Shown here one piece after another: positions 4,485 through 30,821 of a stretch of DNA of 64,000 nucleotides (its first letter is position 1; each line of letters starts with the position of its first letter). Made by a program: the position numbers and the translations under genes. The notes under the pieces were generated by a model. The model saw only the letters and a program-made list of their open reading frames with translations, was not told where the DNA came from and ran no database searches. Source of the stretch: an uncultured delta proteobacterium (GTDB lineage Bacteria > Myxococcota_A > Polyangia > Polyangiales > Houyiibacteriaceae); the NCBI GenBank assembly GCA_963817725.1, contig CAWFPD010000006.1, forward strand, positions 19,723 to 83,722. The letters are read 5' to 3'.

Positions 4485-4795
4485 GCGCGCAACTTCCAGT
4501 CCCGTCGGCCGATAACCCACCAAGCCCCGAACCCGACGCCGCTCCTACAAAACCACCTCAGGCGCCAGTCCAACTCAGCCGTTCTTTGACAATCCAATCC
4601 AGATATCCGGGAGTGCCAGAGACGAGCCGCCACCGAACGCGCTGTGCAGATATCCGGGAGTGCCAGCGACGAAGCATCTAACCAAGCTGTCCAGATATCC
4701 GGAAGTCCCCACGGCAAGGAAGGTGCCTACCGGCGCTGGTTAGTCGAGTCGATGGATTGCAGCGCGCGGGAGATTTCCTGGATCGCGCGGGCATG
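4485..4795 (+). repeat. Decayed copy A of the composite module (junction repeat, HigB-like stub, 3 x 23-bp HNH-type repeats, 3' stub of the small membrane-protein gene)
   Basis: Junction at 4485-4518 (gcgcgcaacttcc...cggccgataaccc). The 23-bp repeats sit at 4597, 4642 and 4687 with a 45-bp period. On the minus strand 4727-4792 reads RAIQEISRALQSIDSTNQRR*, the C-terminus of the 14612/30567 family. Confidence 0.75.
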
Positions 4796-4883
4796 GGGCG
4801 CACGCACCTCGTCGTCCGCGACCTAGCCTGCTCGACCAGATGCCTCTTTTGGCCCCTACCAGGAGGAACCGCTATCTTGATGT

Positions 4884-5633
4884 TTGGGGGATGTGGTGAG
4901 TGGGCACGAAGGACTCCGCGGCAAACATCTGCTGATCGCGATCGTGGTTTTGGCAGCATCGCTTCTGCTCATTGCAATCGGAATCGAACAGTCAGCGGAA
5001 GGCAAACAACCACGTCTTGCCTCTCCTTCGGACTCGATCGCGTATTGCCGCCTTCACTGGAACGGAAGAGTAGAGAAGCAGCGCGGGTACCGATCTGCCG
5101 ATCTCATATGGGACGAGGACCTCGAGCCGGTCTTGGGGGCCAAGCAAGCCGAGTTGATGCCAAGCGGGCCTCCCCCACTCGGGGACTTTCCTGACGTGAG
5201 CTACATCCACTCTTTCGCTGTTGCCCTCACGCCATCGGATTGTGAGGTTCGATATGCTGAAGAGGCCGAAATCGTTTGTGAGAGCTCTTGTTATGAGCTT
5301 GTTCGGGACAATGTGGTGGCGGCCAGCGCAAAGGTAGCTTGCGAGTCTTGTTTGGACCGCAACCGACGCGGGAGGAACAAGGGGTGCCTTGGGGAAGAAC
5401 CGAAATGTCCGCCTTTTTCCTTCAACGCAGTCATAGAGTCCGTCGAGGAGAACGATCCGAGCGCGGCGCGAGTGACAATACTCCAAGAGGGCAACGCGAA
5501 AACAAAGGCCATCGTGGATTGTGTCCGAATGCGCGACTGCAAGAACGTAGGTGAAAGAGTCCTCTTCAACTGCTGGGGCAAGTCTGACGCATCGCAAATC
5601 ATTCGCTATCAATACTGCGAGCAGGGCCGGTAG
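4884..5633 (+). CDS. Membrane-anchored Cys-rich protein, paralog family member P1
   Basis: TM helix LLIAIVVLAASLLLIAIGI. The C-terminal domain ...FSFNAVIESVEENDPSAARVTILQEGNAK... is shared with 5764..6342, 6339..7520 and 22363..22937. The start codon is uncertain (TTG 4884 or GTG 4893). Confidence 0.55.
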   Translation: MGDVVSGHEGLRGKHLLIAIVVLAASLLLIAIGIEQSAEGKQPRLASPSDSIAYCRLHWNGRVEKQRGYRSADLIWDEDLEPVLGAKQAELMPSGPPPLGDFPDVSYIHSFAVALTPSDCEVRYAEEAEIVCESSCYELVRDNVVAASAKVACESCLDRNRRGRNKGCLGEEPKCPPFSFNAVIESVEENDPSAARVTILQEGNAKTKAIVDCVRMRDCKNVGERVLFNCWGKSDASQIIRYQYCEQGR

Positions 5634-5763
5634 CACATCCAGGCTTCACACGTCCGTGCCCGCCGTCCGCCGCGCTATAGCGCTCGACCCGCCGGGCTAC
5701 GGCCTTCGATAAGCCGCTCGCCGTCCCGTCCGGCTGCCGGGGTACGGTGTCCTCCGTGGGATT

Positions 5764-6342
5764 TCAACGCCCGAAGCGAAGGCTGTCAAACCGGGCCGAG
5801 CTCTCATCGCTCGTGGTTTCGGCTCTTGCGACGCACCCCAGCTCGTCAGATTTGGATGCCAACATCTGCACGCAGTCCTGGAACCGTGGCACGCCATCTG
5901 GATCGTCGACGCTGTCGAAGCATGCAAACCTCACCGGCGCGCCCTCTTGCCCTATCACGCGCGCGTCTTCAGCCACGACGCTGCGATCGACGATGCCCCG
6001 AGTGAGCGCTCCGTGCTCTCCGAGGATGATGACCCGCGCGGCGTGCCCATCCTCATCGACCTCCGCCTCGATGACCGCGTTGAAGCAGTAGCCCACGCAA
6101 CCATCGCTGCTCATGACCGGAGTCGCCGCCGGCAACTGCTCCCAGTCGAGGCCATCCGAATCGTACGTTGGGAAGGCACAGTCTTCGCCGCCCTGTGCTT
6201 TGGCCGACGCGCTTGCGTAGGCTCCAGCGTATTGTTGTCTGCTGAGAGTGAGAAGGCGGCCGACGGCGACCAACAACAGCAGCGCGCCTACCGTTATCGT
6301 CACCCGAGCGACACGAAGTGCTTTTCCGCGGTTTTGTTTCAC
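5764..6342 (-). CDS. Membrane-anchored Cys-rich protein, paralog P2
   Basis: TM segment VTITVGALLLLVAVG. Domain CVGYCFNAVIEAEVDEDGHAARVIILGEHG...VRFACFDSVDDPDGVPRFQDCVQ. The GTG at 6342 overlaps the TGA of the upstream gene (GTGA coupling). An alternative ATG lies at 6387. Confidence 0.6.
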   Translation of the reverse strand: MKQNRGKALRVARVTITVGALLLLVAVGRLLTLSRQQYAGAYASASAKAQGGEDCAFPTYDSDGLDWEQLPAATPVMSSDGCVGYCFNAVIEAEVDEDGHAARVIILGEHGALTRGIVDRSVVAEDARVIGQEGAPVRFACFDSVDDPDGVPRFQDCVQMLASKSDELGCVARAETTSDESSARFDSLRFGR

Positions 6343-7520
6343 AGCTTCCCCGCTTTCGCTTTGAAAGCCTTCGATGCGGTCAAGCACGCCCAGTCGTCCG
6401 CTGGATCCGCTTCCATTTGGACGCAGTCATCAAAATGCGGCGCGACACCGCTGCCATCCGACTTGTCGAAGCAAGCGAATCTCAGGGGTTCTCTCCGACC
6501 CTCTTCCGTGTCAGTCGACGCCGCGACCACGCTGCGACTCAGGGTAGCTCGAGCGAGCGCACTGCCTTCGTCCAGGATCGCAACCCGAACGACATCAGGT
6601 GATTCTTTGGCCGTCGAATCGATGAACGCCCTGAAGCAGTATCCCACACAGCCATCGCTCGTTTGCGCCACGTCTGCCGGCGGGAGCCTCTTCCAGTGAT
6701 TCAACCCTGGTTGGTAATTGGGGTCTGAGCAGTCGTGTCGCGGTTTCCTCGAGCTAACCCTCGGTACGCCCGGGAGGCTTTGACCGTGACATCGCACGCC
6801 GGAGACGTGAGCGGCCAAGCCGCCTCTGCCTTCGGACGATGTCGTCCATTCGATCACGTCATTCTTGAGCATCCGGACTCCGCCCTGATGCTCGCCCTGA
6901 CCGGTGACGTATAGACCATTCGCCGCGACGACAACGAGATCGCTGCACCAAAGCCAGTCATTGCCGACTTCGGTCTGACCGTCCCTATCGCAGAGAAGGG
7001 TTTCCGGACCTTCGACTTTCACCGCGAGGAAGTCGCCGTCGTGGCGTGGAACGAAGGGCTTACCTTCGTGGTCCAAGAAATCGAAGCGATTGTCGGTCTC
7101 TCCATTCACGCCTCCGATTTCCACCTCCACGGTGAGCGGGTCCAAGCTCCACAGCCGATAGCGCGCTGGAGAGTCTGTTTCCACTATCTGCCCATTGCCT
7201 CTCGGTCCTCCCGCGGTTGTGCTCACGTGGAAGCGGTTGCACTCCGTCCAGGTCCACAAGCTCGCTCGCGTACCCTGTGCGAGCTTCTCGCCCAGGGTCT
7301 CAGAAGTTGCTGGCCGGCTGGGGTCGCCCCACGTCCGTTCGAACCTGGCCGGAAACCCCATCCTGTTGGCGGTCGGAGGGTCGGGGACCGGCGATGAAGG
7401 CTCCGCCCCCGACTCTTGCTCCTCACCAGCCTGAATGTCTAACGATCCGCTGCGCTGTGTCGGAGCCGTTGTCTTGCATCCAGCGAGCCCAACCGCCAAC
7501 GCCAAAATCAACCATCTCAT
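6339..7520 (-). CDS. Lipoprotein with C-terminal Cys-rich paralog domain (P3)
   Basis: Signal and lipobox MRWLILALAVGLAGC starting at 7520. C-terminal domain CVGYCFRAFIDSTAKESPDVVRVAILDEGS...LRFACFDKSDGSGVAPHFDDCVQ. Confidence 0.65.
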   Translation of the reverse strand: MRWLILALAVGLAGCKTTAPTQRSGSLDIQAGEEQESGAEPSSPVPDPPTANRMGFPARFERTWGDPSRPATSETLGEKLAQGTRASLWTWTECNRFHVSTTAGGPRGNGQIVETDSPARYRLWSLDPLTVEVEIGGVNGETDNRFDFLDHEGKPFVPRHDGDFLAVKVEGPETLLCDRDGQTEVGNDWLWCSDLVVVAANGLYVTGQGEHQGGVRMLKNDVIEWTTSSEGRGGLAAHVSGVRCHGQSLPGVPRVSSRKPRHDCSDPNYQPGLNHWKRLPPADVAQTSDGCVGYCFRAFIDSTAKESPDVVRVAILDEGSALARATLSRSVVAASTDTEEGRREPLRFACFDKSDGSGVAPHFDDCVQMEADPADDWACLTASKAFKAKAGKL

Positions 7521-7759
7521 CCGAAGCCCCCAATCCCCGACAATCCGAACAGCGATTTGCTCAGCGATCCGTATGCCTCCACCTACAACGTAGCAATCGA
7601 GCACCGACGCTTCCAAACCGTGAGACAAACCACAAAACGCGAGGTCGCTCGGCTCGCCGATCGGACTTGCTTCCCAATCCCGTAGCGCCCAGTGAATCAG
7701 CCTCTGTCGTTTGTGGGTCAGGTTTGCACTTCGCTAATCTGGAAAGGGGGAGGCAGTCG

Positions 7760-8846: not shown

Positions 8847-8917
8847 ACGGTCCGCTGACCACGCTCCGCTCAGGCGTCGAACGCGCAACTTCTGTCTCCG
8901 TCGTCCGATAACCAACC

Positions 8918-9178
8918 ATGCGCCGCGGACGATGGCGGTTCTACGAAACCGCCTCCGGTGCCAACCAAGTTCAAGCGTTCCTTGACAACCTAACCGCAAG
9001 CGAGGCCGCCGAAGTGGCCGCGGCGATGGAAGAAGTCGCCCGACACGGCCTCCGCCGCGCTCGCCACCTGCGGGGAGACATCTGGGAGGTTCGCGTCGAG
9101 GGTGAACGAAAAGCGTTCCGCGTGGTGTTCAGTCCCGAAGGCGGGTGCAACGCCGAGCCAAACCAAGAGACGACCTGA
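8918..9178 (+). pseudogene. Truncated Gp49/RelE-family toxin (paralog of 23243..23593)
   Basis: MRRGRWRFYETASGANQVQAFLDNLTASEAAEV...IWEVRVEGERKAFRVVFSPEG matches the intact paralog, then diverges and stops early. Confidence 0.7.
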
Positions 9179-9342
9179 AGCGCTACATCGCCGAGCGCGA
9201 CGCGCGCGAGCCAGGGTTTGCCGCGCTCGTGGCGGACGCGGAAGCACGCTTGGCATTTGGTCGCCAGATGGCCGAGCGCCGACGCACCCAAGGCCAGACA
9301 CAGACGCGCCCGCGCCCGATGCCGTTATCCAGATATCCGTGA
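9145..9342 (+). pseudogene. Truncated XRE-type antitoxin (paralog of 23634..23990), fused to a 23-bp repeat and to the 3' end of another antitoxin
   Basis: RRAKPRDDLKRYIAERDAREPGFAALVADAEARLAFGRQMAERRR matches the 23634 protein. The homology ends at repeat 9324-9346. Positions 9355-9430 then encode LIRTLLALGVNRKQVGRAIGAA, the C-terminus of the 16926/26606 antitoxins. Confidence 0.65.
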
Positions 9343-9346
9343 CCCC
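9324..9346 (+). repeat. Single copy of the 23-bp repeat (gttatccagatatccgtgacccc)
   Basis: Direct match to the CTGTCCAGATATCCGKGAGTCCC family. Confidence 0.8.
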
Positions 9347-9594
9347 GAAGACGAGGTCCTGATCCGCACACTCCTCGCCCTCGGCGTGAACCGAAAGCAA
9401 GTGGGCAGGGCGATCGGCGCAGCCCCCGCAGCGGAACCCCCAAAGAACACACGGAAAACAACTGGCCGTGCACACAGCCACCCTAACACAACAGGGTCCA
9501 CGGCCGCTCCGTCGTGCCCAAGGTGCGACGAGCTCACCGGGCATGGCCCATTCACCCCTCGGCCGGCTCAAACACCATACCAGCGACGAAAGCA

Positions 9595-10486
9595 GCGCCC
9601 CCCTTCTAGGGCACTAGCGCCGTTCACGCCGCAGGCGGCGGAGGGTGACGTGTGCTGGCGGTCCTGCCACGAGCTCGATTCCGCGGCTGTCGTTGCTTTG
9701 GAACGCGCTTGCGGTGATCACCTCGCCGTCCCCGAACAGCTCGATGCTGAAGCGATCGAAGACGGCCACGAAGCCCTCGGCGTTCGGCGCATCGCGGGTG
9801 AAGCGCGCAGAAAAACCTTCGCTGATTTCACGACCCTCGGTTCGGTCCACCACCAAGGTGCCGTCGGCCAGTCCCAGCTCGAGAAACTCGTCTTCGCCCA
9901 CGTGTACGCGGAACATCGCGTCCCCACGCACCTCGAGGACGAACGCCTCGCCCTCGATCCCCGCGAAGTCCTCGAAAGCGCGCAACTTCCTCCGGTGTCG
10001 GCCGATAACCAAGCATGCGCCGCAATCGATGGCGGTTCTACGAAACCGTTTCGGGCGCCAAGCCAGTCCGATCGTTCCTTGACAACCTAGCTGCAACCTC
10101 GCATCCGACCCCGACGAGCTCGCCGAAAGCGACGCAGCCACCCGAAGTCCAGATATCCGTGAGTGGGGGAGCCGAAGCCGCGCGCAATGAACCCGATGGA
10201 CGCGCCGGCAAAGAAAGGGCCGGCGCGCCCGAGCCCATGCCGCTGTCCAGATATCCGTGAGTGCCGGAGCCAACGAACCCACTGTCCAGATATCCGTCAG
10301 TCCCAACGACGAAGGCAGCGTTGTCCAGATATCCGTGAGTCCCGGAGACGAGGTCCGCTGTCCAGATATCCGTGAGTCCGGCGTCGACCGCGCCGTCATC
10401 TCCCGAACGCGACCACCGCAAGATCGATACGGCGCCGAGACGAACGCGCGCAATCGCGTAACTCCCGCCGGCGACGGTCGATAACC
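9595..10486 (+). repeat. Copy D of the composite module. It is a deletion derivative of block 18085..20272 (GH32 3' fragment, junction, HigB-like stub, 5 x 23-bp repeats, second junction).
   Basis: On the minus strand 9614-9970 encodes FAGIEGEAFVLEVRGDAMFRVHVGEDEFLELGLADGTLVVDRTEGREISEGF...LRRLRRERR*, the GH32 C-terminus. Junction at 9978-10014. The stub is ATG 10015 MRRNRWRFYETVSGAKPV.. The repeats are at 10145, 10243, 10282, 10321 and 10358. The second junction is at 10445-10486. Confidence 0.85.
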
Positions 10487-10525
10487 CTTCGTGCCTCTCA
10501 CCTCCCACCAAGCCTCCGGGATGAC

Positions 10526-10547: not shown

Positions 10548-10829
10548 ATGATTAAGTCGTTTGCGAATAGGCACACGGCCGACCTATTCTTCACGGGCAA
10601 GTCTCGGCGGCTGCCGCCAGACATCGTTCGACGGGCAATACGAAGGCTCGACTATGTTCACCTCGCAAAGCGGCTCGATGATCTCAGAATCCCTGCCAGC
10701 AACCGGCTGCACGGCTTGCACGGAGACCGAAAGGGGCAGCACGCAATATTCATCGACAAGCAGTGGAGGGTCTGTTTTCGCTTCGAGGGCGGCAATGCCT
10801 ATGAAGTAGAGGTGACCGACTACCACTAG
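10548..10829 (+). CDS. higB: HigB-family toxin (plasmid maintenance system killer)
   Basis: MIKSFANRHTADLFFTGKS...NRLHGLHGDRKGQHAIFIDKQWRVCFRFEGGNAYEVEVTDYH is the classic HigB pattern, ending in DYH. Confidence 0.85.
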   Translation: MIKSFANRHTADLFFTGKSRRLPPDIVRRAIRRLDYVHLAKRLDDLRIPASNRLHGLHGDRKGQHAIFIDKQWRVCFRFEGGNAYEVEVTDYH

Positions 10830-10839
10830 CCCGGACGGA

Positions 10840-11154
10840 ATGACCATGACACTCAGAAGGAAACGGCAAAGACGCCCCACGCACCCCGGAGAGTTCCTCC
10901 GCGAGGACTTCCTGCCCGACTACAACCTTTCGGTCGCCGACCTCGCCGCGGCCATCAAGGTGTCCCGCCAGACCGTCAACGAGCTCATCAACGAAAAGCG
11001 CGCCGTGAGCGCGGCCATGGCCCTCCGTCTCTCCCGCTACTTCGGCAACAGCGCCGAGTTCTGGCTCAACGCCCAACGCGAGCTCGACCTCTGGGAAGCA
11101 GAGCGCCTCCACAAAGCCGAGCTCAAACAAATCAAGCCCCTGTCGGCCGCCTAG
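10840..11154 (+). CDS. higA: HigA-family antitoxin (HTH)
   Basis: HPGEFLREDFLPDYNLSVADLAAAIKVSRQTVNELINEKRAVSAAMALRLSRYFGNSAEFWLNAQ is the HigA signature. It starts 10 nt after higB. Confidence 0.85.
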   Translation: MTMTLRRKRQRRPTHPGEFLREDFLPDYNLSVADLAAAIKVSRQTVNELINEKRAVSAAMALRLSRYFGNSAEFWLNAQRELDLWEAERLHKAELKQIKPLSAA

Positions 11155-19528: not shown

Positions 19529-19558
19529 GGTGGCAAGCGTGGCGGGACTTACGGCTTT

Positions 19559-20572: not shown

Positions 20573-20579
20573 GCCCTCC

Positions 20580-20760: not shown

Positions 20761-20779
20761 CCAACAGTTCCAACCGACC

Positions 20780-22134: not shown

Positions 22135-22194
22135 CGCGAACCTCACCTTCTCGATGATCATCAAGAGGTAGTTAGGAGCACGAAGCCGAGGCCT

Positions 22195-22214
22195 CCATAC
22201 GTAATTCTTTCCGG
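22195..22214 (-). promoter_or_regulatory. AT-rich conserved motif ccggaaAGAATTACGTATGG (copy 1 of 3)
   Basis: Lies 61 nt upstream of the S28 peptidase start. The same 13-14-mer occurs at 37512-37534 and 40880-40903. Confidence 0.4.
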
Positions 22215-22362
22215 ACCGGCCGGCGCAAATCCTGCGCCAACCGTCGTGGCGGCCGCAGCTCACCCCTCCGCAGGCTCAAACACCGCCGAGAAAACCTCGG
22301 CTACACCCAAACCCAAGTCGCCGACCTCATCGGCTCCAGCCAATCCCGCGTCGCGGGGGCGG

Positions 22363-22937: not shown

Positions 22938-23165
22938 GCTCAACCAACCCCCCACAACCACAATACCAACCCCCGCGTCCGCACCCCAGTTGGCGTCGTC
23001 ACGAAACCCTGAGTTTCCAGTCAAAAACAACAAGCCGCGCGGCCTGTTCGTTTTCCGACGAAAGCACGCAACGTCGCCGCCTTATGGCCGATGACTGAGC
23101 ATGCGCGTCGACAACCAAATCCCAAGGGACATCCGTGACCCCCGAAGACGAGGCGCCGGATAGAG

Positions 23166-23187
23166 CTGTCCAGATATCCGCGCGTCC
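23166..23187 (+). repeat. Single 23-bp repeat copy (plus a decayed copy at ~23120-23142)
   Basis: ctgtccagatatccgcgcgtcc. Confidence 0.7.
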
Positions 23188-23242
23188 TACGAACTGGTTG
23201 CGCAATCGCGCAACTCCCGTCGCGACCGTCCGATAACCAACC

Positions 23243-23593
23243 ATGCACCGCAGACGATGGCGGTTCTACGAAACCGCTTCGGGTGCCAAGCCAGTTCAAG
23301 CGTTCCTTGACAACCTAACCGCAACCGAGGCCGCTGAAGTGGTGGCGGCCATGAAAGAGATCGCCCGGGAAGGCCTCCGTTTCGCTCGTCACCTCCGCGG
23401 CGACATCTGGGAGGTTCGCGTCGAGGCCGAACGCAAAGCGTTCCGCGTGCTGTTCAGCCCCGAGGGAAGGGCCCAACAGGTCCTCTTGGCTCTCGACGCG
23501 TTCACCAAGAAGACCCAAAAGACACCAGCTCGCATGATCGAGCTCGCTGAGCGTCGCCTGTCGGATTGGCGAAGCCGGGGAAGGGGAGCGTAG
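23243..23593 (+). CDS. Gp49-like/RelE-ParE superfamily toxin (intact)
   Basis: MHRRRWRFYETASGAKPVQAFLDNL...RHLRGDIWEVRVEAERKAFRVLFSPEGRAQQVLLALDAFTKKTQKTP. The ATG follows junction copy k directly. Confidence 0.8.
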   Translation: MHRRRWRFYETASGAKPVQAFLDNLTATEAAEVVAAMKEIAREGLRFARHLRGDIWEVRVEAERKAFRVLFSPEGRAQQVLLALDAFTKKTQKTPARMIELAERRLSDWRSRGRGA

Positions 23594-23633
23594 CGTTGAG
23601 GCGCATTGCCACCTCACAAAAGGTATACTACAT

Positions 23634-23990
23634 ATGATAAATCTCATGGGACGCCGAGCCAAACCAAGAGACGACCTCGAACGCTACATCGCGAATCGCG
23701 ACGCCCGCGAGCGCGGCTTCGCCGCCTTCGTCGCTAATGCAGAGGTGCGATTGGCCTTTGGCCGTCGGATGGCCGAACGCCGGCGAGCCAACGGCAAGAC
23801 GCAAACCCAAGTCGCAGCCCTCATGCAAACCTCTCCAGCCATCGTGAGCCGCCTCGAGTCGGGCCACGACGTCCGCGTCTCCACCCTCGAGAAGTACGTA
23901 GCCGCCCTAGGTTTGCGGCTCGAAATCAACGCCGTGCCGCCAATGAAGCCGACCACCGAAGCGTCGCGCGCACGCCGCGCGAAGAAGTAG
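23634..23990 (+). CDS. XRE-type HTH antitoxin
   Basis: KTQTQVAALMQTSPAIVSRLESGHDVRVSTLEKYVAALGLRLEINAV. Confidence 0.75.
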   Translation: MINLMGRRAKPRDDLERYIANRDARERGFAAFVANAEVRLAFGRRMAERRRANGKTQTQVAALMQTSPAIVSRLESGHDVRVSTLEKYVAALGLRLEINAVPPMKPTTEASRARRAKK

Positions 23991-24017
23991 TTTCGCACGC
24001 CGCTGGTTTCTGATCCC

Positions 24018-24611
24018 ATGCCCGAACCCGATCCAGCCAAAGTCAAAACCTTTGCGTCAGCAAAAACGCTGCGGCAATGGCTCAAAGCCAACCATGCCTC
24101 CGAAAACGAGCTTTGGATCAGGGTATTCAAAGTGAAGACGGGCAAACCAAGCGTCAGTTGGACTGAGATCGTCATGGAAACGCTATGCTGGGGCTGGATC
24201 GACGGCATCAAGAAGTCCATCGATGGCGAAGCCTACCTCCAGCGGATCACGCCACGAAAACCTCGAAGCAGTTGGTCCAAGCGGAACCGAGAGCATGCGG
24301 AGCGTTTGATCGGCGAGGGTCGCATGCAGGAGCCGGGGCTGGTGCAGGTCCGCGCCGCGAAGGCGGACGGACGCTGGAAGAATGCCTACGCGGCAAGCGA
24401 AATGAAACTGCCCGCGGATTTCCTGGCAGCGGTCGAACGCAAGCCCAAAGCGAAACAATGCTTTGAAACGTTGAACAAGACCAATCGATACGCCATCGCG
24501 TACGGACTCACGACGGCCAAGCGACCCGAAACCAGAAAGAAACGCTTCGACGAGTTCCTGGACATGCTCATCCGCGGAGAGAAGCCGGACTTCGGGTTCA
24601 AGAAAACATAG
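24018..24611 (+). CDS. YdeI/OmpD-associated family protein
   Basis: WLKANHASENELWIRVFKVKTGKPSV...CWGWIDGIKKSIDGEAYLQRITPRKPRSSWSKRN...TAKRPETRKKRFDEFLDML. Confidence 0.7.
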   Translation: MPEPDPAKVKTFASAKTLRQWLKANHASENELWIRVFKVKTGKPSVSWTEIVMETLCWGWIDGIKKSIDGEAYLQRITPRKPRSSWSKRNREHAERLIGEGRMQEPGLVQVRAAKADGRWKNAYAASEMKLPADFLAAVERKPKAKQCFETLNKTNRYAIAYGLTTAKRPETRKKRFDEFLDMLIRGEKPDFGFKKT

Positions 24612-24681
24612 CAAAGCAATGAAGCCGCCAATCGGAGAAGAGGCGATAGCGAGTGACGAACCGCGCCCAAGCGTGATGCCG

Positions 24682-24704
24682 TTGTCCAGATATCCGGGAG
24701 TCCC
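24682..24704 (+). repeat. Single 23-bp repeat copy
   Basis: ttgtccagatatccgggagtccc. Confidence 0.8.
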
Positions 24705-24730: not shown

Positions 24731-24859
24731 GGGCCCATTGACCTCACCCCCCTCGCCGCTAGATCCACAGCATCCCCAAACCCCCACGCGCACGACGACG
24801 ACATGGCCCAACGCCTCTACGAACACAGTCGCGAGCTCGTGGGCCTGGAGGCCTCATGA
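24731..24859 (+). pseudogene. Internally deleted remnant of an SDR gene paralogous to 35639..36637
   Basis: 24731-24780 aligns with the promoter/start region 35599-35650, with the ATG mutated to ATC. 24781-24859 encodes ..HDDDMAQRLYEHSRELVGLEAS*, matching the SDR C-terminus. Its TGA overlaps the ATG of the next gene. Confidence 0.7.
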
Positions 24860-25998
24860 CCCAAACAATCTCCGGTGACGCCCTTCAATTGCGATCGATC
24901 ATCAAAAGCGACGGCACGCTCGAGTTGTCGCTCGAGACGCTCCCGATCCCCCAACCCAAAGACGACGAGGTGCTCGTTCGCATCGAAGCATCGCCGATCA
25001 ACCCGTCGGACCTCGGTCTTCTGTTCGGCGCCGCGGACCCGTCGACCATGCGCGCGTCGGGCAGTCCGGATCGCCCGGTCGTAACCGCAAGCGTTCCCGA
25101 GAAGTCCATGCGCGCGATGGCCGCCCGCGTCGACAAGTCGCTGCCAGTCGGCAACGAGGGCGCAGGCGTCGTCGTTGCGGCGGGCGCGGGCGCCCAGGCG
25201 CTGATCGGCAAAACCGTCGGCGTGGTCGGCGGCGCCATGTACTCACAGTACCGCTGCCTTCCAGCCAAGCAGGTGCTTCCCTTCCCCGAGGGCACAACCC
25301 CGGCAGATGCCGCATCCTGGTTCGTCAATCCCCTGACCTCGCTCGGCATGGTCGAGACGATGCGCCTCGAAGGCCACAAGGCCCTCGTACACACGGCCGC
25401 CGCCTCGAATCTCGGTCAGATGCTGCAGAAGGTCTGCCTCGCGGACGAAATTCCCCTCGTCAACATCGTGCGTAAACCCGAACAGGTCGAGCTACTCCGC
25501 GGCATGGGCGCCTCCCACGTATGCAACTCGAGCGAACCCACCTTCATGAAAGATCTCACCAACGCGCTCGTCGAGACGGGTGCGACGCTGGCGTTCGACG
25601 CAATCGGCGGCGGTACGCTGGCCGGGCAGATTCTCACCTGCATGGAAGCCGCCGCAAGTTCGACTGGGGCCGCGTACAGCCCCTACGGCTCCACTACACA
25701 CAAGCAGGTCTACATCTACGGCGGACTCGATCGCAGTCCCATCGTATTGAACCGCAGCTTCGGCATGGCCTGGGGCGTCGGCGGCTGGCTCTTGTTCCCG
25801 TTCCTCCAAAGGATCGGCCCCGAAGCCGTTCAGAAGCTGCAGACCCGCGTCGCCGCCGAAATCAAAACCACCTTCGCGAGCAACTACACCCGCGAGGTCT
25901 CCCTCGCCGAGGCCCTCACCCTCGAAGCGATCGCGGTCTACGGCAAACAAGCAACCGGCGAAAAGTTCCTACTCAACCCCAACAAGGGCATCGCCTGA
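24856..25998 (+). CDS. MDR-superfamily (zinc-type/quinone oxidoreductase-like) dehydrogenase
   Basis: DDEVLVRIEASPINPSDL, a GroES-like N-terminus, and the Rossmann region LVHTAAASNLGQML. Confidence 0.65.
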   Translation: MTQTISGDALQLRSIIKSDGTLELSLETLPIPQPKDDEVLVRIEASPINPSDLGLLFGAADPSTMRASGSPDRPVVTASVPEKSMRAMAARVDKSLPVGNEGAGVVVAAGAGAQALIGKTVGVVGGAMYSQYRCLPAKQVLPFPEGTTPADAASWFVNPLTSLGMVETMRLEGHKALVHTAAASNLGQMLQKVCLADEIPLVNIVRKPEQVELLRGMGASHVCNSSEPTFMKDLTNALVETGATLAFDAIGGGTLAGQILTCMEAAASSTGAAYSPYGSTTHKQVYIYGGLDRSPIVLNRSFGMAWGVGGWLLFPFLQRIGPEAVQKLQTRVAAEIKTTFASNYTREVSLAEALTLEAIAVYGKQATGEKFLLNPNKGIA

Positions 25999-26258: not shown

Positions 26259-26609
26259 ATGCTGGATAAGCCGCTCGTTTGGCTTGGGAGCAAGGTTCGA
26301 AGTCCGCCGTTTTCCCAAGACGCTCGGCGGCAGGCGGGGTGGCTCGTGAGGCGGCTGCAGAACGGAGAAGCGCTTTCTATGCCGAAGTCCCGGCCCATGC
26401 CCGGCATCGGCCCGCGCTGCCATGAGCTCCGCATCGACGACCGCGAGACCGGGAAGACCTGGCGCATCATCTACCGAGTCGACCCCGACGCGATTGTCAT
26501 CGTCGATTCATTCGCAAAGAAGTCGCAGGCAACGCCCCGAACCGCGATCGCCCGCGCAGCACGGCGTCTCCGGCTCTACGACGCATCCGCCAAGGAGGCA
26601 CTGCAATGA
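26259..26609 (+). CDS. Gp49-like/RelE-ParE superfamily toxin (paralog of 16579)
   Basis: PLVWLGSKVRSPPFSQDARRQAGWLVRRLQNGE...CHELRIDDRETGKTWRIIYRVDPDAIVIVDSFAKKS. Confidence 0.8.
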   Translation: MLDKPLVWLGSKVRSPPFSQDARRQAGWLVRRLQNGEALSMPKSRPMPGIGPRCHELRIDDRETGKTWRIIYRVDPDAIVIVDSFAKKSQATPRTAIARAARRLRLYDASAKEALQ

Positions 26610-26929
26610 AGCAAGAGAAACGCCGCCGGCTCGAGGCCCAAGGCTGGAAGTTCGGCTCTGCAAAAGAGTTCCTCAACCTCACCGACGAAGATGTCGAGTA
26701 CATCGAGCTCCACCTCTCCCTCGCGGCCCTCCTCACAAAACGAAGAAACTACCTCGGCTACACCCAAACCGAAGTCGCCGCCCTCATCGGCTCCAGCCAA
26801 TCCCGCGTCGCCAAAATGGAATCCGGCGACCCAAGCGTCTCCGTCGACCTCCTCATCCGCACCCTCCTAGCCCTCGGCGTAAACCGAAAGCAAGTGGGTA
26901 GGGCGATCGGAGCAGCTGCTTCTGCGTAG
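26606..26929 (+). CDS. XRE-family HTH antitoxin (paralog of 16926)
   Basis: LGYTQTEVAALIGSSQSRVAKMESGDPSVSVDLLIRTLLALG, with a 4-nt overlap with the toxin. Confidence 0.8.
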   Translation: MKQEKRRRLEAQGWKFGSAKEFLNLTDEDVEYIELHLSLAALLTKRRNYLGYTQTEVAALIGSSQSRVAKMESGDPSVSVDLLIRTLLALGVNRKQVGRAIGAAASA

Positions 26930-27082: not shown

Positions 27083-27586
27083 ATGGCAGCCGCGACTCCC
27101 AAGATCGAGCTCATCTACGACCCTGACTGCCCGAACGTGGAGCGGGCGCGCGAACGGCTTCGCCAGGTCGTAGAGGCGGCAGGAGCTTCCCTGGGGGTGG
27201 TCGGCGGCCACGTCGCGTTCGTCGATCAAGATGGTGGGCGAGCCATGGCCTCGCGCGTAGTCGGGGAGCGCGGGATCGTCGCTCCGCCACTCGGTCCAAG
27301 CGAGGCCTTGGCCGCGCTCGGCGATGCCAACCAACGAAAGCACGGCCTGCGTTTCGAAGACGCAAAGTCCATCTTCATCTGGGAAGCCGACCGATTGGAT
27401 GAGCGCGACGAATGGCACCCAGCGAGCGAGGAGCGTTTCATCTCGATTGGGCCGATCGCGCTGGGCCTCGTCACCGTCGTCTGGACTGAGCCGGTTGACG
27501 ACTTGGTGCGGATCATCAGCGTGCGTCTGTCGACGAGGCGCGAGCGTGAAAGATACTGGCGATACAAGTCCGGTGACTACGCATGA
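27083..27586 (+). pseudogene. Chimeric ORF: rearranged thioredoxin-like remnant fused in frame to a 5'-truncated BrnT toxin
   Basis: The N-terminus is KIELIYDPDCPNVERARERLRQ. From ANQRKHGLRFEDAKSIF... the sequence parallels BrnT 17441 but lacks its first 13 codons. The opposite strand of 27172-27300 encodes AWTEWRSDDPALPDYARGHGSPTILIDERDVAA...SSCRLY. Confidence 0.5.
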
Positions 27587-27906
27587 CTGACGATCTGGAA
27601 ATTCGCGAGCTGACGGACGCCGATTTCAAAAGGATGATTCCGGCGCCGGTCAGGCGGCGCATACGCGAAGGACGGATCGAGTCTGGTAGAGACATCATCC
27701 TGCTTCGGCGCTTCGTCGGCCTTAGTCAGAAAGAGTTCGCGCGCGCTCTCGAGATCAGCGTTCACACACTGCGTAACTGGGAGCAAGGCCGCCGCCAACC
27801 CGAAGGCCCCGCCATCGCGCTACTGAAAATCGCGGCCCGGCATCCAAACATCGTTCGGCAAGCAGCAGGCCGCGGGCCATCTTCGCCCAGCGCAAAGAGC
27901 CGCTAA
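27583..27906 (+). CDS. HTH antitoxin, paralog of 17734..18060
   Basis: LRRFVGLSQKEFARALEISVHTLRNWEQGRRQPEGPAIALLKIAARHP. Confidence 0.75.
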   Translation: MTDDLEIRELTDADFKRMIPAPVRRRIREGRIESGRDIILLRRFVGLSQKEFARALEISVHTLRNWEQGRRQPEGPAIALLKIAARHPNIVRQAAGRGPSSPSAKSR

Positions 27907-27957: not shown

Positions 27958-28221
27958 ATGTCCAACACACTCCTAGAATCCACCGGGAAAGGAAGGTTTG
28001 CTTTGCCCATGGCCGTGATCGTCCACTGGAACGGTGTCGACGTTCCTGAAGAGCTGAAAGCCCTGAAGAAGGGCCGCTACGTGCTCGTCCCGATCGACGA
28101 GCCGCCTGAGCTCACCGAAGAGCAAGAGGCCGGCCTCGAGGCCGCGCTCGCGTCCGTGCGTGAGGGGCAAGGTCTCTCGCGAGATGAGGCGTACGCGAAA
28201 GCCAAGGCAAACCTAGAGTGA
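27958..28221 (+). CDS. ParD-like small antitoxin
   Basis: The ATG follows junction copy l. The C-terminus is LTEEQEAGLEAALASVREGQGLSRDEAYAKAKANLE. The stop overlaps the GTG of a ParE-like stub. Confidence 0.5.
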   Translation: MSNTLLESTGKGRFALPMAVIVHWNGVDVPEELKALKKGRYVLVPIDEPPELTEEQEAGLEAALASVREGQGLSRDEAYAKAKANLE

Positions 28222-28346
28222 CGGGTCTCGTCGTAGCGCTCGAGGCGCTCGACGACCTGGCGGCTGCAACGACCTACATCGCTCGCGATAATCCGGCCGC
28301 GGTGACCAAGTCACGCCAAGGGGCGGCCTGTTGGAATTCGAACGAA
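28218..28346 (+). pseudogene. 5' stub of a ParE/RelE-family toxin truncated by junction copy m
   Basis: MTGLVVALEALDDLAAATTYIARDNPAAV... then the homology is lost where junction 28347-28385 begins. Confidence 0.55.
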
Positions 28347-28396: not shown

Positions 28397-28426
28397 TTGA
28401 CAAATGTTCAGTATTCAAGCTATAAT
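28397..28426 (+). promoter_or_regulatory. Near-consensus sigma70-type promoter (TTGACA-18 nt-TATAAT) of the HNH gene
   Basis: ttgaca at 28397-28402 and tataat at 28421-28426. The ATG at 28438 is only 11 nt after the -10 box. This is a locally AT-rich segment in a GC-rich genome. Confidence 0.55.
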
Positions 28427-28437
28427 CACAAGTAATC

Positions 28438-30375
28438 ATGCGGAGTTCCAGCGCACTAATCCCAGCTTCGCCACCCTCCGAGCACGTCCAGCTCGCCCGG
28501 CCCCTCCCAGCTCCACCGCACCCCGAAACCGCCCAGCTCGACGCCGAGCTCCACCGCCTCTCCCGCGGCGCCGGCCGCCTTCGTCTCCGAATCGGCCAAG
28601 CCCTCCACCGCCTAGCTGACGGCATCCACGAGCTCGGCTTTTCCACCCTGGGCGCGTACGCGCTCGAGCGCTGCAATCGCGGCGGTCGCTGGGCGGCCGA
28701 AAGCCGCACCCTCGCGCGCCGTCTGCAGTCGCTACCGCACCTGACGAACGCCCTCGAAGCCGGGTCCATCGGCTGGAGCATGGCGGAGCTGCTCGCCCGC
28801 CACGCCACACCTCAAACCGAAGCCGCACTGCTCCAGGTGGCACGCGGCAAAACGGTTCAAGCCATGCGCATCGCCTTGAGCCCGCAAGGCTCACCCGATC
28901 CCCCCGACGACGACGACCTCGCGCGCACGCTCTCGCTCACGCTGCCGGTCGAAGAAGCCTGGGCGCTAGAGGCCACGCGCATGATGGTCGAGCACATGGA
29001 CGGCAAGCACACCGGCGGCCACTTCCTCGAGTCACTCCTCGCCGAGGCCACCATCTCGCTGCTCGAGCTCACCGGGCCCACGCAAGCCCAAAAAGCCGGC
29101 CAAGCCGCGCAGGCCGACGAATCCGGCCAAGCCGCGCAAGCGGACGAAGCCGATGTCTCCGCGCAGATGGAAGCGGAATACACCGCGTGGCGCGCGCAGA
29201 TGCAGCACCTCCAACACCTGCAAGCAGAAGCCGAGCTCCGAAGCCGCCCGGCGGTCACCACCAAGCCCAATCCGGGTGAGGCCCCCGAAACCGACGACCT
29301 GCCCATCGGCCTCGAAGCGATCGACGCGCGCATCCGTCACTACAGCGCAGAGCTCGCCAGTCGCGACCTGTTCTTCGGCCGCATGGCCCAACGCTTCCTC
29401 GCACTCCGCGGTTGGCAAACACTCGGCTTCGCGACCGAAGCACATTACGCCCGCGAGCGCCTCGGCATGTCCCGCGCGTCGCTCCGAAGCAAGCTCAGCC
29501 TGGCACGCCGCAGTCGGGCGCTCGACCACGTCGTCGACGCGCTTCAGCAGGGCCGCATCGGCTTCGAAGCGGCACATCTCGTCGCCCGCATCGCCACGGG
29601 GGGCACCGAGCAAGCCTGGGTCGAGCGCGCCACCCGCCGCACCTTCAAACACCTCCGCGAAGAAGTCCAAGCCGTAGAAATGACCGCCCGCTTCACAGGC
29701 CAAACCGACCGCTCCCCCCCAAGCGAAGCCCAAATGCAACAATTCCAGTCGCTAGAACGCGCAATCCTCAGCGGCGAGCTCCTACGACGCGTCACACACA
29801 ACTATTCAGCCGAAAGCCCCGACGACGATGCTCCCACTGTCCAGATATCCGGGAGTCCCAACGACGAAAACCCCGCTGTCCAGATATCCGTAAGTCCCGA
29901 CAGCGAGGCACCGAACGAACCTGTCCAGATATCCGGAAGTCCGACCGGCAAAGTAACCTTGCGCATGCGCATCTCCGGCGATCTCCTCCTCCACTACCGC
30001 CAACTCGAACGCCTCCACCGCCAAAAACTCCCCGGCACCAGCTTCATTCAGTTCCTCTGCGCGACCTTCTGGCAAACCTGGGTGCCGACCCTGGGCGTCT
30101 CTGACAAATGGGAAACGATCTACCGCCGAGATCGCTACCGCTGCACCAGCCCCGTCTGCCACCAGCGCAACATCACCCTCCACCACGTGAAGTACCGTGC
30201 CACCGGCGGCACCGACGCCCCCAACAACCTCACCTGCCCCTGCGCCTTCTGCCACCTGCAAGGCGAGCACGGCGGTCGCCTCAAAATCCTCCCCCCAGGC
30301 TCCGACCCCACCTGGGTCCTCGGCCGCCACCCGATCATGCGCGTCCACCGCCGCGAGCGAACCCTCCTCAACTAG
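28438..30375 (+). CDS. HNH endonuclease with a DUF222-like N-terminal region (REP13E12-like family)
   Basis: The C-terminal HNH motif is CTSPVCHQRNITLHHVKYRATGGTDAPNNLTCPCAFCHLQGEHGG. The central tandem peptide repeat is TVQISGSPNDENPAVQISVSPDSEAPNEPVQISGSP. Confidence 0.8.
   Translation: MRSSSALIPASPPSEHVQLARPLPAPPHPETAQLDAELHRLSRGAGRLRLRIGQALHRLADGIHELGFSTLGAYALERCNRGGRWAAESRTLARRLQSLPHLTNALEAGSIGWSMAELLARHATPQTEAALLQVARGKTVQAMRIALSPQGSPDPPDDDDLARTLSLTLPVEEAWALEATRMMVEHMDGKHTGGHFLESLLAEATISLLELTGPTQAQKAGQAAQADESGQAAQADEADVSAQMEAEYTAWRAQMQHLQHLQAEAELRSRPAVTTKPNPGEAPETDDLPIGLEAIDARIRHYSAELASRDLFFGRMAQRFLALRGWQTLGFATEAHYARERLGMSRASLRSKLSLARRSRALDHVVDALQQGRIGFEAAHLVARIATGGTEQAWVERATRRTFKHLREEVQAVEMTARFTGQTDRSPPSEAQMQQFQSLERAILSGELLRRVTHNYSAESPDDDAPTVQISGSPNDENPAVQISVSPDSEAPNEPVQISGSPTGKVTLRMRISGDLLLHYRQLERLHRQKLPGTSFIQFLCATFWQTWVPTLGVSDKWETIYRRDRYRCTSPVCHQRNITLHHVKYRATGGTDAPNNLTCPCAFCHLQGEHGGRLKILPPGSDPTWVLGRHPIMRVHRRERTLLN
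29837..29943 (+). repeat. Three 23-bp repeats inside the HNH CDS (29837, 29876, 29921)
   Basis: ctgtccagatatccgggagtccc, ctgtccagatatccgtaagtccc and ctgtccagatatccggaagtccg. The periods are 39 and 45 bp. Confidence 0.9.
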
Positions 30376-30566
30376 CCCGGGCCAGCCTGCGTTGGCCCGC
30401 ACGATCTCGACCATCGCGCGCCGTACGCATGTCACCTGGCGCTAGGGCGCTGCATGTCGAGCCCGCCCCCCAGGTCGGACGAACGCGGCTCGCAAGGCTC
30501 AAGGGTCTTCGGCGCTAACGACGAACAACAGTATTCGGATGAGGTGTTCATCGCTGGAGTGATCGA

Positions 30567-30821
30567 CTACCGCCGCTGATACTTGAGCGTGCCCTCGATG
30601 GATTGGAGCGCGCGGGAGATTTCCTTCAGGGCACGGGTATTATCTTGGACGGCACGGCTGGTCTCCTGCGACTTCAACGTGCTTGCAATGTCCTCGAGCG
30701 CGCGCACCGTGTCCTGCGAGGGATTGCTGCTGTAGGCCGTGGCGAGCGCGGGGCCGACGCCCATGCCGATCACGCCGCCGATCATCACGCCGACCGCGAG
30801 CGACTTAAGGTCTCGTTTCAT
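30567..30821 (-). CDS. Small single-pass membrane protein (paralog of 14612..14866), convergent with HNH
   Basis: RBS aggagg. MKRDLKSLAVGVMIGGVIGMGVG...VRALEDIASTLKSQETSRAVQDNTRALKEISRALQSIEGTLKYQRR. Confidence 0.65.
   Translation of the reverse strand: MKRDLKSLAVGVMIGGVIGMGVGPALATAYSSNPSQDTVRALEDIASTLKSQETSRAVQDNTRALKEISRALQSIEGTLKYQRR

Follow-up and report, generated by a model that had tools for sequence, protein, structure and literature searches.

A co-oriented toxin-antitoxin cassette array punctuated by three recurring non-coding elements in a Polyangiales-type myxobacterium

A toxin-antitoxin (TA) island occupies 4.5-30.9 kb of the 64-kb stretch of DNA analysed here (the window), which comes from a Polyangiales-type myxobacterium. 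Its cassettes (HigBA, Gp49-XRE, BrnT-HTH, a ParD/ParE fragment and an AF2212-like antitoxin) are co-oriented and accompanied by numerous truncated genes, and the array is punctuated by three non-coding elements, J, H and R, all on the plus strand; at its right end lies an HNH endonuclease gene (28438-30375). The reading preferred here, to which we give a probability of about 0.5 as a whole, is that this is one instance of a lineage-wide (Polyangiales/Myxococcota) class of co-oriented TA-cassette arrays in which dispersed J/H/R modules would drive duplication and deletion. The original prediction, an accessory, TA-rich island of reiterated composite blocks, is borne out by self-BLASTN (which showed the repeats to be real), motif counts and Pfam. 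It had also described six copies (blocks A to F) of one ordered module, and this is not so: A and C lack GH32 sequence, which is confined to D, B, E and F, and the comparisons show instead nested products of duplication and deletion among the three conserved elements. The architecture had not been recognised as a described element type, and in the literature searched we found no description of it either.

J is a bipartite motif, GCGCAACTTCC-N11-CCGATAACC, with about 15 copies in the window; TCGGCCGATAACCA has 10 matches (0.39 expected), all on the plus strand and all within 4.5-30 kb. The predicted “junction repeat” is better described as this discrete motif at a fixed distance before start codons. 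Each cassette begins at J, some J copies are preceded by a GC hairpin (H), and the order R-H-J-gene recurs. The genes headed by J encode Gp49, HigB, BrnT, the ParD-like antitoxin, the AF2212-like antitoxin, a 122-aa protein and the HNH endonuclease. In 31 cases, from unrelated gene families, the distance from J to the start codon is exactly 5 nt, and in the others it is 53-75 nt; this placement suggests that J is probably a promoter. Among eight copies of the 87-aa antitoxin cassette, the similarity starts exactly with the CGCAAC box and stops at the stop codon. J could be an ECF-sigma-type promoter (AAC-N16-CGA) giving putative leaderless or short-leader TA transcripts, and H would insulate it from upstream transcription. 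The HNH gene and the FitA genes have a separate sigma-70 promoter downstream of J, so J could serve another role.

R has the core TGTCCAGATATCCG, with 23 copies in the window (0.27 expected), again all on the plus strand and within 4.5-30 kb. The copies are spaced mostly 36-47 nt apart (32-47 nt overall), with no helical phasing. What had been called a 23-bp tandem repeat is an array with a 39-nt period (Tandem Repeats Finder), a conserved core of 14-21 nt and variable spacers. By BLASTN, the R clusters of the window match the linker of the HNH gene at a related locus (L036) and that of the window's own HNH gene, and they share spacers with these linkers, for example GRAGKEEAGAPEP, as well as the trailing PA(T/G)K. 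These matches show the R arrays to be copies of the DNA for the disordered interdomain linker of the HNH protein, conserved at the nucleotide level; the “HNH-type repeat” is thus not the relic of a 23-bp repeat.

The HNH gene (28438-30375, 645 aa, Pfam HNH) is preceded by J at 28352 and by a perfect sigma-70 consensus promoter, TTGACA-N18-TATAAT (28397-28426; 12/12 in a promoter scan). The repeat cluster predicted for block C is present, but it lies inside this intact reading frame: three R cores, starting at 29838, 29877 and 29922, are read as VQIS (residues 468, 481 and 496) in a linker that is disordered in the AlphaFold2 model (pLDDT <50, residues 455-503) and connects the HNH domain to a helical N-terminal part. 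In 58 metagenomic HNH homologues, found by peptide patterns outside the R motif, the VQIS codons are GTC in 62/62, CAG in 62/62, ATA in 58/62 and TCC in 62/62 cases; elsewhere in the same genes CAG makes up 39% of Gln, ATA 3% of Ile and TCC 23% of Ser codons. That VQIS is almost always written GTC CAG ATA TCC points to selection on the nucleotides of the motif in HNH genes. The number of R copies per HNH gene is 1-3 or more; a distant homologue has four 39-nt repeats with a variant core, GTCTCGATGTCCGG, at the corresponding position, and in relatives further removed the linker still contains a Q-[IM]-S motif. Non-coding R clusters diverge by 3.9% in their cores against 19.2% in their flanks, in a comparison of non-independent pairs whose alignments were seeded on the cores. 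Both within HNH genes and among non-coding copies, the nucleotides of the R core are kept constant. Several HNH genes (L043, L050, L051) have neither J nor non-coding R in their 10-kb flanks, so the enzyme is not tied to arrays.

The history of the blocks can be read most clearly from GH32. The intact GH32 glycoside hydrolase gene (18095-19762, minus strand; Pfam Glyco_hydro_32N E=8e-67; likely lipoprotein start at 19528, MLKQLACLVV...) is the evident source of three 3′ fragments with coding sense on the minus strand, at 9595-9974 in block D, 14019-14392 in block B and 16042-16186 in block E (92.7%, 95.5% and 91.1% identity to the intact gene, respectively, by self-BLASTN). As predicted, D, B and E leave GH32 homology at a common nucleotide, after GATCCCCGCGAAG(T/G)C, and J follows. 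The same GH32/J junction is present at locus L011 of a different genome, which indicates that it is old and real, not an assembly artefact. These common junctions support the original idea of one ancestral deletion derivative that was re-duplicated: a single derivative was copied three times.

A Gp49 5′ stub had been placed in every block. It follows J at 9982 in D (80 nt, 10015-10095), at 16198 in E (16231-16310) and at 19728 in F (19761-19840), but it is decayed in A, almost gone in B and absent from C. Block A (4489-4701) consists of J (4489-4518), the degenerate stub, which lacks a start codon, and R cores at 4596, 4643 and 4688. Block D (9595-10487) continues with an R array of five cores at a 39-nt period (10146-10372), after which J appears again at 10458. 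In block B (14019-14866), J at 14406 and R cores at 14475 and 14514 are followed by about 30 nt of HNH 3′-side sequence; a copy of this block in another metagenome-assembled genome (MAG; locus L018) is 86% identical. Block E (16042-16506) has R cores at 16351 and 16388, an H hairpin at 16452 and a J variant at 16479, and its orthologue in L011/L036 is 93-95% identical. The right part of block F (19728-20764) has six R cores (19890-20154, that at 20063 with a 1-nt deletion), H at 20216 and J at 20243. D 10168-10242 and F 19948-20023 are nearly identical, as had been noticed, within a longer similarity of 89% (D 10130-10500, F 19905-20290). The reported duplication of a small membrane-protein gene also holds: the minus-strand copies at 14612-14866 (convergent, block B) and 30567-30821 (convergent on the HNH gene) are 78% identical by self-BLASTN.

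Between the blocks, Pfam identifies HigB/HTH, three Gp49/XRE pairs and one truncated, two BrnT/HTH pairs and the AF2212-like antitoxin, in agreement with the HigBA, Gp49-XRE and BrnT-HTH cassettes originally called. In the truncated cassette, J at 8885 heads a shortened Gp49 gene (8918-9178, Pfam Gp49; homologous to the gene at 23243 up to 9141). Two pieces of an XRE gene follow, a 5′ remnant (9150-9305) and a 3′ fragment (9357-9438), with a single R core between them at 9326, and the region 8885-9438 has 86% and 78% BLASTN identity to 23207-23806. HigB (10548-10829, Pfam HigB-like_toxin E=3e-14) is paired with a HigA-type HTH antitoxin (10840-11154, HTH_3 E=3e-9). A Gp49-type toxin (16579-16929) and XRE antitoxin (16926-17249) are separated by H (17311) and J (17338) from BrnT (17441-17737) and its BrnA/MqsA-like HTH antitoxin (17734-18060), all four genes with Pfam matches. 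The AF2212-like antitoxin (20342-20572, Pfam) has no toxin and is followed by an XRE 3′ fragment (20587-20764). Next is a segment (23068-24696) with J at 23068, an R core at 23167, J at 23210, the intact Gp49 toxin (23243-23593) and XRE antitoxin (23634-23990), both Pfam calls, an OmdA/YdeI-like gene (24018-24611) and an R core at 24683. H (26131) and J (26158) introduce a further Gp49 (26259-26609) and XRE pair (26606-26929; Pfam), then a 5′-truncated BrnT fused to foreign sequence (27083-27586) and its HTH antitoxin (27583-27906, Pfam). Finally, J at 27926 precedes a counterpart of the predicted ParDE-like cassette: a gene for an 87-aa ParD-like antitoxin (27958-28221), overlapped by the 5′ fragment of a ParE gene (28218-28330). 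The ParE fragment has no Pfam match; it is recognised by its N-terminal sequence and by L036, where its homologue is a 75-aa gene upstream of a Pfam ParE gene.

The design recurs beyond the window, which the original prediction had missed. A scan for two tandem R cores returned 34 loci in about 20 Myxococcota MAGs, and J, H and R with TA cassettes recur in about 20 Polyangiales/Myxococcota genomes. In one relative (L036/L035), Gp49/XRE, BrnT/MqsA, HigBA, ParE, FitA/PIN and OmdA cassettes lie on a single strand and the array ends in two HNH genes; in other lineages R arrays lie between RHH-PIN cassettes. Of 55 R clusters outside HNH genes, 29 have a strict J within 400 nt, and where J and R occur within 500 nt of each other they share a strand (71 R copies, against 0 with J on the opposite strand). 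Cassettes common to the window and the relative are 93-96.6% identical and differently ordered, while flanking core genes are 88% identical (two core genes only) and HNH genes 78-86%. Truncated toxin genes abut R arrays time and again: there are three independent Gp49-stub/R junctions, and R stands in place of ParE directly after the antitoxin stop codon at L001, L006 and L023. At L003, L005 and L010 the HNH promoter and ATG are joined to the gene's own R array.

Under the preferred reading, R would work in the manner of iterons or a centromere: the HNH protein would bind the array through its helical N-terminal part, which may be a ParB-type HTH. From the co-occurrence of the two and the presence of R inside the gene, we infer a link between R and the protein. 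A bound array, or HNH cutting beside R, would make the R flanks fragile, and deletions would then end at both R edges and spare R itself. The dispersed J/H/R copies would supply homology for unequal crossing-over and gene conversion, which would shuffle, duplicate and truncate cassettes. Similarity to the ParB/Noc HTH falls short of significance, with E=1.7 in Foldseek and, for one distant relative, E=0.004 to Pfam HTH_ParB. Two known systems invite comparison. First, R resembles iterons and centromere repeats in being a tandem direct repeat whose core is short and partly palindromic (CCAGATATCCGG), with spacers and a copy number that vary and a core that varies together with distant homologues. 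In the F plasmid centromere sopC, the ParB-type SopB binds 12 repeats of 43 bp. The phage lambda origin lies inside gene O, and R likewise occupies the gene part encoding a flexible linker between two domains. R differs in that its binding is putative, the protein that carries it is an HNH nuclease, not a replication initiator or partition protein, and its arrays are scattered among TA cassettes, with no plasmid or phage context found when this was looked for. Second, REP13E12 of M. tuberculosis (DUF222 + HNH) is likewise a chromosomal, multi-copy gene whose product combines a helical N-terminal part with a zinc-finger HNH domain at the C terminus. To our knowledge, REP13E12 has no codon-invariant internal array, dispersed non-coding copies or TA cassette array. 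DUF222 is matched by 3 of 29 orthologues of the window HNH protein (best E=4.5e-7), whereas the window protein itself and ten distant relatives fall below significance. REP13E12 loci are gene-conversion hot spots in M. tuberculosis (PMC13061034; PMC10589994), among the most frequently converted there (PMC13061034).

The same remains could come from plain decay of an ordinary TA/defence island by RecA-dependent unequal crossing-over between any paralogues, with R clusters as inert remains of dead HNH copies and J as a promoter inherited with duplicated TA genes. The abundance of truncated genes and fragments, the 5-25% divergence between blocks (as expected of old duplications) and the HNH genes without arrays would all suit it. 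We think it unlikely, since a core conserved five times better than its flanks is not expected of inert remains, and neither is R as the sole surviving part of HNH, with independent deletions at both edges, or a codon-invariant motif that persists across species. J moreover heads unrelated families with similarity beginning exactly at the -35 box, for which gene duplication alone is insufficient.

R might also act as RNA: arrays downstream of a promoter would yield a repeat transcript that serves either as a cis-regulatory leader or, as in type III TA systems, in the way of an antitoxin or decoy, and the motif within HNH mRNA would be the same signal. In 6 of 8 window clusters and many relatives R lies 70-165 nt downstream of J or the HNH promoter. 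H follows R arrays, and L028 has J, then R x4 in the leader of an RHH-PIN operon. R always has the orientation of J (71 versus 0), which could simply be inherited. This order (promoter, tandem array of 30-45 nt units, hairpin, toxin-related gene) resembles ToxIN, CptIN and TenpIN, and the 32-47 nt units are within the range of type III antitoxin repeats (36 nt in ToxI). The idea is nevertheless rather doubtful: only the 14-21 nt core is conserved and spacers vary, unlike the exact units of ToxI, no conserved hairpin is seen in R units by eye, no Rfam family matches the region, and no ToxN/AbiQ-like endoribonuclease was found; the neighbouring toxins are type II, with their own protein antitoxins.

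An integron-like site-specific system, with J or R-H-J as the attC counterpart and cassettes inserted and excised as units by the HNH protein or by a recombinase whose gene lies elsewhere in the genome, seems improbable. The array does recall sedentary chromosomal integrons (such as the Vibrio superintegron) and integrase-less attC clusters: long, co-oriented and TA-rich, it has small cassettes bounded by J (left) and a stop codon (right), a conserved element between them, an order that changes between relatives, and cassette identity exceeding that of core genes. TA cassettes are typical chromosomal-integron cargo (PMC13108822). Yet neither the 64 kb nor the 22-kb related loci yielded an IntI tyrosine recombinase or other integrase, and, as originally predicted, there is no classical recombinase in the window, where no integrase, transposase, phage gene or tRNA was found. 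We know of no strand-exchange recombinases among HNH nucleases. J has no attC-like hairpin (folding z-scores of -0.5 to +0.9, short form) and no R''/R' core pair, its fixed 5-nt distance to the start codon suits a promoter better than a crossover site, and R is absent from many cassette junctions. Integron cassettes are also mostly promoterless, whereas these each seem to carry their own promoter. In defence/TA islands and the pdif (Xer) modules of Acinetobacter plasmids, TA modules (HigBA, BrnTA) are likewise small portable units found together with defence genes, but J and R are unlike XerC/XerD sites (11-6-11 layout) and the window units keep a single orientation instead of alternating.

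Expansion or mis-joining of repeats in metagenome assembly is very improbable, even though the window very probably comes from a MAG, arrays in relatives often lie at contig ends and a split HmaC gene may reflect sequencing errors, because copies differ by 5-25% and have different neighbours, and the GH32/J junction, block E and block B recur in independent assemblies of other genomes. That HmaC-like AAA+ ATPase (two overlapping frames, 6-1595 and 1339-2490, plus strand; PADLOC HmaC E=5e-196 and 2e-79) and an OLD/AriA/GajA-like ATPase (2511-4184, plus strand; AriA E=5e-23, Old E=1e-19) form the left flank, as in defence/TA islands, where TA units cluster with defence genes. Pfam AAA_15 is matched within these genes (6-4184), and G+C falls to 53-57% across this flank.

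Self-BLASTN bears out the reiteration at the core of the original prediction, which had placed six copies of one module at 4485 (block A), 9595 (D), 14018 (B), 16042 (E), 18085 (F) and 28347 (C), but it does not recover a single ordered module. What recurs instead is three non-coding elements on the + strand: J (a bipartite motif before genes), H (a GC hairpin) and R (a repeat core). Three fragments of the GH32 3′ end, 91-95% identical to the intact glycoside hydrolase gene, are present as described, as are the ~80-nt 5′ end (stub) of a Gp49 gene and a duplicated small membrane-protein gene, and the Gp49/XRE and BrnT/HTH cassettes between blocks are indeed paralogous. GH32 homology in D, B and E stops at the same nucleotide (GATCCCCGCGAAG[T/G]C), followed by the junction motif, and D and F share 89% identity across 390 nt. 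The claim that every block has GH32 sequence and a stub was too broad: the former is present in D, B, E and F only, and the latter is clear in D, E and F only. The repeat, given as 23 bp, has a period of 39 nt and a core of 14-21 nt, and the repeats of C belong to the HNH reading frame. Two short motifs far exceed chance (23 matches against 0.27 expected, and 10 against 0.39), always on the + strand and restricted to 4.5-30 kb.

The genes at 0-31 kb were mapped from Pfam, NCBIfam and PADLOC scans. The window has a G+C content of 59-68% and Myxococcota-type genes (EGF/PKD surface proteins, a Ser/Thr kinase and lipoproteins). An HmaC-like (DUF499) ATPase occupies two overlapping + strand frames (6-1595 and 1339-2490) that match positions 128-596 and 583-940 of the HmaC profile; the split points to a pseudogene with a frameshift or to an error in sequencing. 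G+C falls to 53-57% at the OLD/AriA/GajA-like ATPase that follows (2511-4184, +), immediately to the left of the toxin-antitoxin (TA) array; the array therefore sits within a defence island. Adjacent partners of the type II kind, assigned by Pfam and all on the + strand, are HigB with an HTH antitoxin (10548-11154), three intact Gp49/XRE pairs (16579-17249, 23243-23990 and 26259-26929) and two pairs of BrnT with an MqsA-like HTH antitoxin (17441-18060, and 27083-27906 with a 5′-truncated BrnT). Several partners are truncated or missing: the same strand carries a truncated Gp49 toxin (8918-9178), an AF2212-like antitoxin without a toxin (20342-20572), and an 87-aa ParD-like antitoxin (27958-28221) followed by a 5′ fragment of ParE (28218-28330). 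An OmdA-like gene (24018-24611, +), an alcohol dehydrogenase-like gene (24856-25998, +) and, at the right end, the gene for a 645-aa HNH endonuclease (28438-30375, +) share this orientation; GH32 (18095-19762), an MXAN_6640-type metalloprotease (11226-13655) and an S28-like hydrolase (21067-22263) are on the - strand. A 26-nt tandem repeat (3.3 copies, 19554-19638) closely precedes the likely start codon of GH32, and an 81-nt direct repeat with 89% identity (24772-24852 and 36508-36588) is found upstream of the alcohol dehydrogenase-like gene and at the 3′ end of a short-chain dehydrogenase gene. A paralogous secreted or lipoprotein-like family, all - strand (4139-4480, 5764-6387, 6339-7628 and 22363-22707), has a common Cys-rich C-terminal domain (C.GYCF.A.I...V.IL...RFACFD...P.F..C) and no Pfam or NCBIfam match. 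Further right, a GGC-rich repeat with a 9-nt period (33729-33937) encodes the Gly-rich N-terminus of a DUF5122 beta-propeller protein (33727-35556).

Element R reads TGTCCAGATATCCG, is often lengthened to ...G(T/G)GAGTCC, and occurs in clusters of one to six. These clusters are homologous to ~160 nt of the HNH gene's linker-coding region, a homology that takes in the acidic spacers, a prefix (GRAGKEEAGAPEP) that some orthologues have and the first codons past the last repeat. In the AlphaFold2 model, the linker joins a helical N-terminal part of two similar modules to the HNH domain, and its disordered residues 455-503 hold the repeats. The domain is recognised by Pfam (E=2e-4, residues 568-608; all 29 family members match) and its motif is intact in translation (CTSPVC...LHHV...NNL...CAFCH). 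The family is 70-83% identical in dozens of metagenome-assembled genomes (MAGs), and codon usage was compared in 63 metagenomic loci fetched via peptide patterns outside the motif, avoiding the bias of using it as bait. Within 58 HNH genes, the VQIS codons are GTC (62/62), CAG (62/62), ATA (58/62) and TCC (62/62), while elsewhere in the same genes CAG makes up 39% of Gln, ATA 3% of Ile and TCC 23% of Ser codons. Given this contrast, the R core inside HNH genes is, on codon evidence, under selection at the nucleotide level. Among non-coding clusters the core differs by 3.9% and the flanks by 19.2%, in pairs that are not independent. At the same place, four 39-nt repeats with a related core (GTCTCGATGTCCGG) occur in a homologue from Sandaracinaceae (38% identical), and Q-[IM]-S persists in the linker of relatives that are more distant still. 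The gene also contains a separate 27-nt/9-nt tandem repeat (29081-29153); the QAAQADE-type repeats that it encodes fall in a second protein segment of low confidence.

Element J (GCGCAACTTCC-N11-CCGATAACC) occurs in ~15 copies in the window, four of them with H (the palindrome GCGCGCGCC-ACG-GGCGCGCGC) upstream, and the order R cluster, H, J, gene(s) recurs here and in relatives. When only reading frames of at least 40 codons are taken, 31 of 89 distinct J copies have a start codon exactly 5 nt past CCGATAAC, a fixed distance that fits leaderless transcripts; the families concerned include Gp49, the 87-aa antitoxin and a 122-aa protein. Other copies have the start codon 53-75 nt downstream (BrnT, HigB, a second Gp49 type, the AF2212-like antitoxin and HNH). 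When the cassette of the 87-aa antitoxin is compared in eight copies from differing contexts, similarity sets in exactly at the CGCAAC box and ends with the stop codon. The sequence GCAAC-N16-CGATAA fits a promoter of the ECF-sigma type (AAC at -35, a 16-17 nt spacer and CGT/CGA at -10), the AAC-N16-CGA layout being one that we take to resemble ECF-sigma promoters; such promoters fall outside the model of the sigma-70 scan. J is thus probably a promoter module from which leaderless or short-leader transcripts start, and H, upstream of it, may insulate it or act as a terminator. Ahead of the HNH gene, J is followed by a perfect TTGACA-N18-TATAAT promoter (within 28397-28437), a near-perfect sigma-70 consensus in a genome of 63% G+C. 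The spacer of this promoter (AAxGTTCAGTAT[C/T]), loosely like the R core, is conserved in 18 genomes (the window and 17 other loci, e.g. L033, L049 and L059) and might be an operator; CAGTAATCATG ahead of the HNH start codon is likewise conserved across genomes. The BrnT leader (17367-17440, and in the BrnT cassettes of L001, L006, L029, L030 and L032) contains a conserved hairpin (GGTAAGCCATTGACTTACC); it may also hold an upstream reading frame of 12 codons, beginning right after J.

Independent deletions repeatedly stop at the edges of R arrays and spare R itself. There are three different Gp49-stub/R junctions, and in three genomes ParE has been replaced by R straight after the antitoxin stop codon, the window's order of antitoxin, ParE fragment, J and HNH being the presumed precursor. 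At three loci the HNH promoter and ATG are joined to the gene's own R array, block B keeps ~30 nt of HNH sequence past the last R, and B, D and E part from one another right after J. The simplest account would be that R arrays are bound by a protein and have fragile flanks, and that dispersed copies of J, H and R offer the homology on which unequal crossing-over and gene conversion act. The HNH enzyme itself is the natural candidate binder, by analogy with lambda O/ori and sopC/SopB. We give this account a probability of roughly 0.45. R may be an iteron- or centromere-like array that its cognate protein binds; nucleotide-level conservation, the position in the linker and a weak ParB-HTH resemblance of the protein speak for this indirectly. 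The account fits the REP13E12 loci, which are gene-conversion hot spots in M. tuberculosis (PMC13061034).

Plain decay of the cassettes is an unlikely substitute, as it leaves both the conservation of the core and the survival of R alone unexplained. A role for R at the RNA level is rather improbable: R does always lie downstream of promoters and co-oriented with them, but type III TA systems need near-identical repeats, while R units match at 74-87% with variable spacers, and a type III toxin is absent (no ToxN/AbiQ-type endoribonuclease family of Pfam among the array genes). A CRISPR or guide array was rejected, with a core of 14-21 nt, spacers that are mutually similar and coding-derived, no cas genes found and no match to Rfam CRISPR repeat families; the only Rfam match to 1-34 kb at E<=1 was to ArcZ, by chance. 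An integron-like site-specific system is decidedly improbable, since both an integrase and attC-type sites are lacking. In the 64 kb no integrase, transposase or phage gene was found, as originally stated, and no tRNA, hence no tRNA-linked integration site; Pfam and PADLOC found no IntI-type recombinase domain in open reading frames chosen by a codon-bias survey of the 64 kb, nor in L035/L036. Folding of the short J form does not exceed that of shuffled sequence (z -0.5 to +0.9), a GC palindrome is all that the long form has (z about -2), and no RYYYAAC/GTTRRRY pair was seen at J by eye. A Xer/dif or pdif-like site was also discarded by eye (J has a GCGCATAA-like half, and the XerD arm is absent). 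An insertion sequence or MITE was rejected too: no transposase was found in the window, R clusters have variable ends and three different Gp49 junctions, and the orientation is the same throughout.

If R arrays are protein-bound sites, a bolder version would be a previously unrecognised Polyangiales cassette-array system, in which an HNH endonuclease, through a ParB-like part that binds DNA, recognises the repeats in its own linker-coding DNA and breaks R arrays between TA cassettes; the breaks would capture, shuffle, duplicate and disarm cassettes, and R would preferentially take the place of toxin genes. We regard this as doubtful. It would be a functional counterpart of integrons that uses a nuclease and host recombination instead of a tyrosine recombinase. 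The known kinds involved are a TA/defence island and multi-copy HNH repeat genes. Like REP13E12/DUF222-HNH proteins, the window protein has a C-terminal HNH domain with an intact motif. DUF222 (PF02720) does not match it at E<0.1 but matches 3 of 29 orthologues (best E=4.5e-7) and 0 of 10 distant relatives, and precomputed PF02720 assignments exist for four homologues. Neither a PDB sequence search nor Foldseek with the AlphaFold2 model gave a significant match, a weak resemblance to the Noc/ParB HTH in Foldseek being below significance; PADLOC assigned no defence family, and in plasmid and phage collections the HNH domain alone matched, to IscB. Multi-copy HNH genes with a DUF222-like N-terminal part, REP13E12 included, are recombination hot spots for which we know of no function. 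The family would gain a testable one: the relative described here carries a 12-nt motif with codons near-invariant across dozens of species, the same motif punctuates TA cassette arrays, and the HNH protein may bind or cut its own internal repeats. TA/defence islands may be built without classical mobile-element enzymes, and a promoter module common to unrelated TA families would define a leaderless-TA regulon in a little-studied phylum. Should these parts fail, a well-documented nested segmental duplication in a TA island would still stand.

With each species represented by one genome, a search for pairs of R cores separated by 20-36 nt gave 34 loci in ~20 Polyangiales/Myxococcota MAGs. R is either within HNH orthologues or in short non-coding clusters, which are read in any of the three frames and adjoin J, Gp49 stubs, the small membrane-protein gene or TA genes. 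The literature searches turned up no account of arrays like these. The close relative, contig_12641 of MFD09779.bin.2.182 (L035, L036 and L011), has a co-oriented array of Gp49/XRE, BrnT/MqsA, HigBA, ParE, FitA/PIN, OmdA and GNAT, then two HNH genes. The cassettes that it shares with the window are 87-96.6% identical but differently ordered; identity is 88% for two flanking core genes and 78-86% for the HNH genes. Block E, including the GH32/J junction, is also in this relative, and a copy of block B (86% identical over J, two R cores and downstream sequence) is in L018 of another MAG (CAWJNN010000030.1, labelled Planctomycetales), a sign of mis-binning or else of a transfer between phyla. This makes the reiteration old, and with copies that have diverged and are conserved across genomes, an assembly artefact is extremely improbable. 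A 198-aa lipoprotein gene outside the array in the window (36663-37340) has an 80% identical counterpart inside the TA array of L036 (5748-6424), so that non-TA genes also move in and out of arrays.
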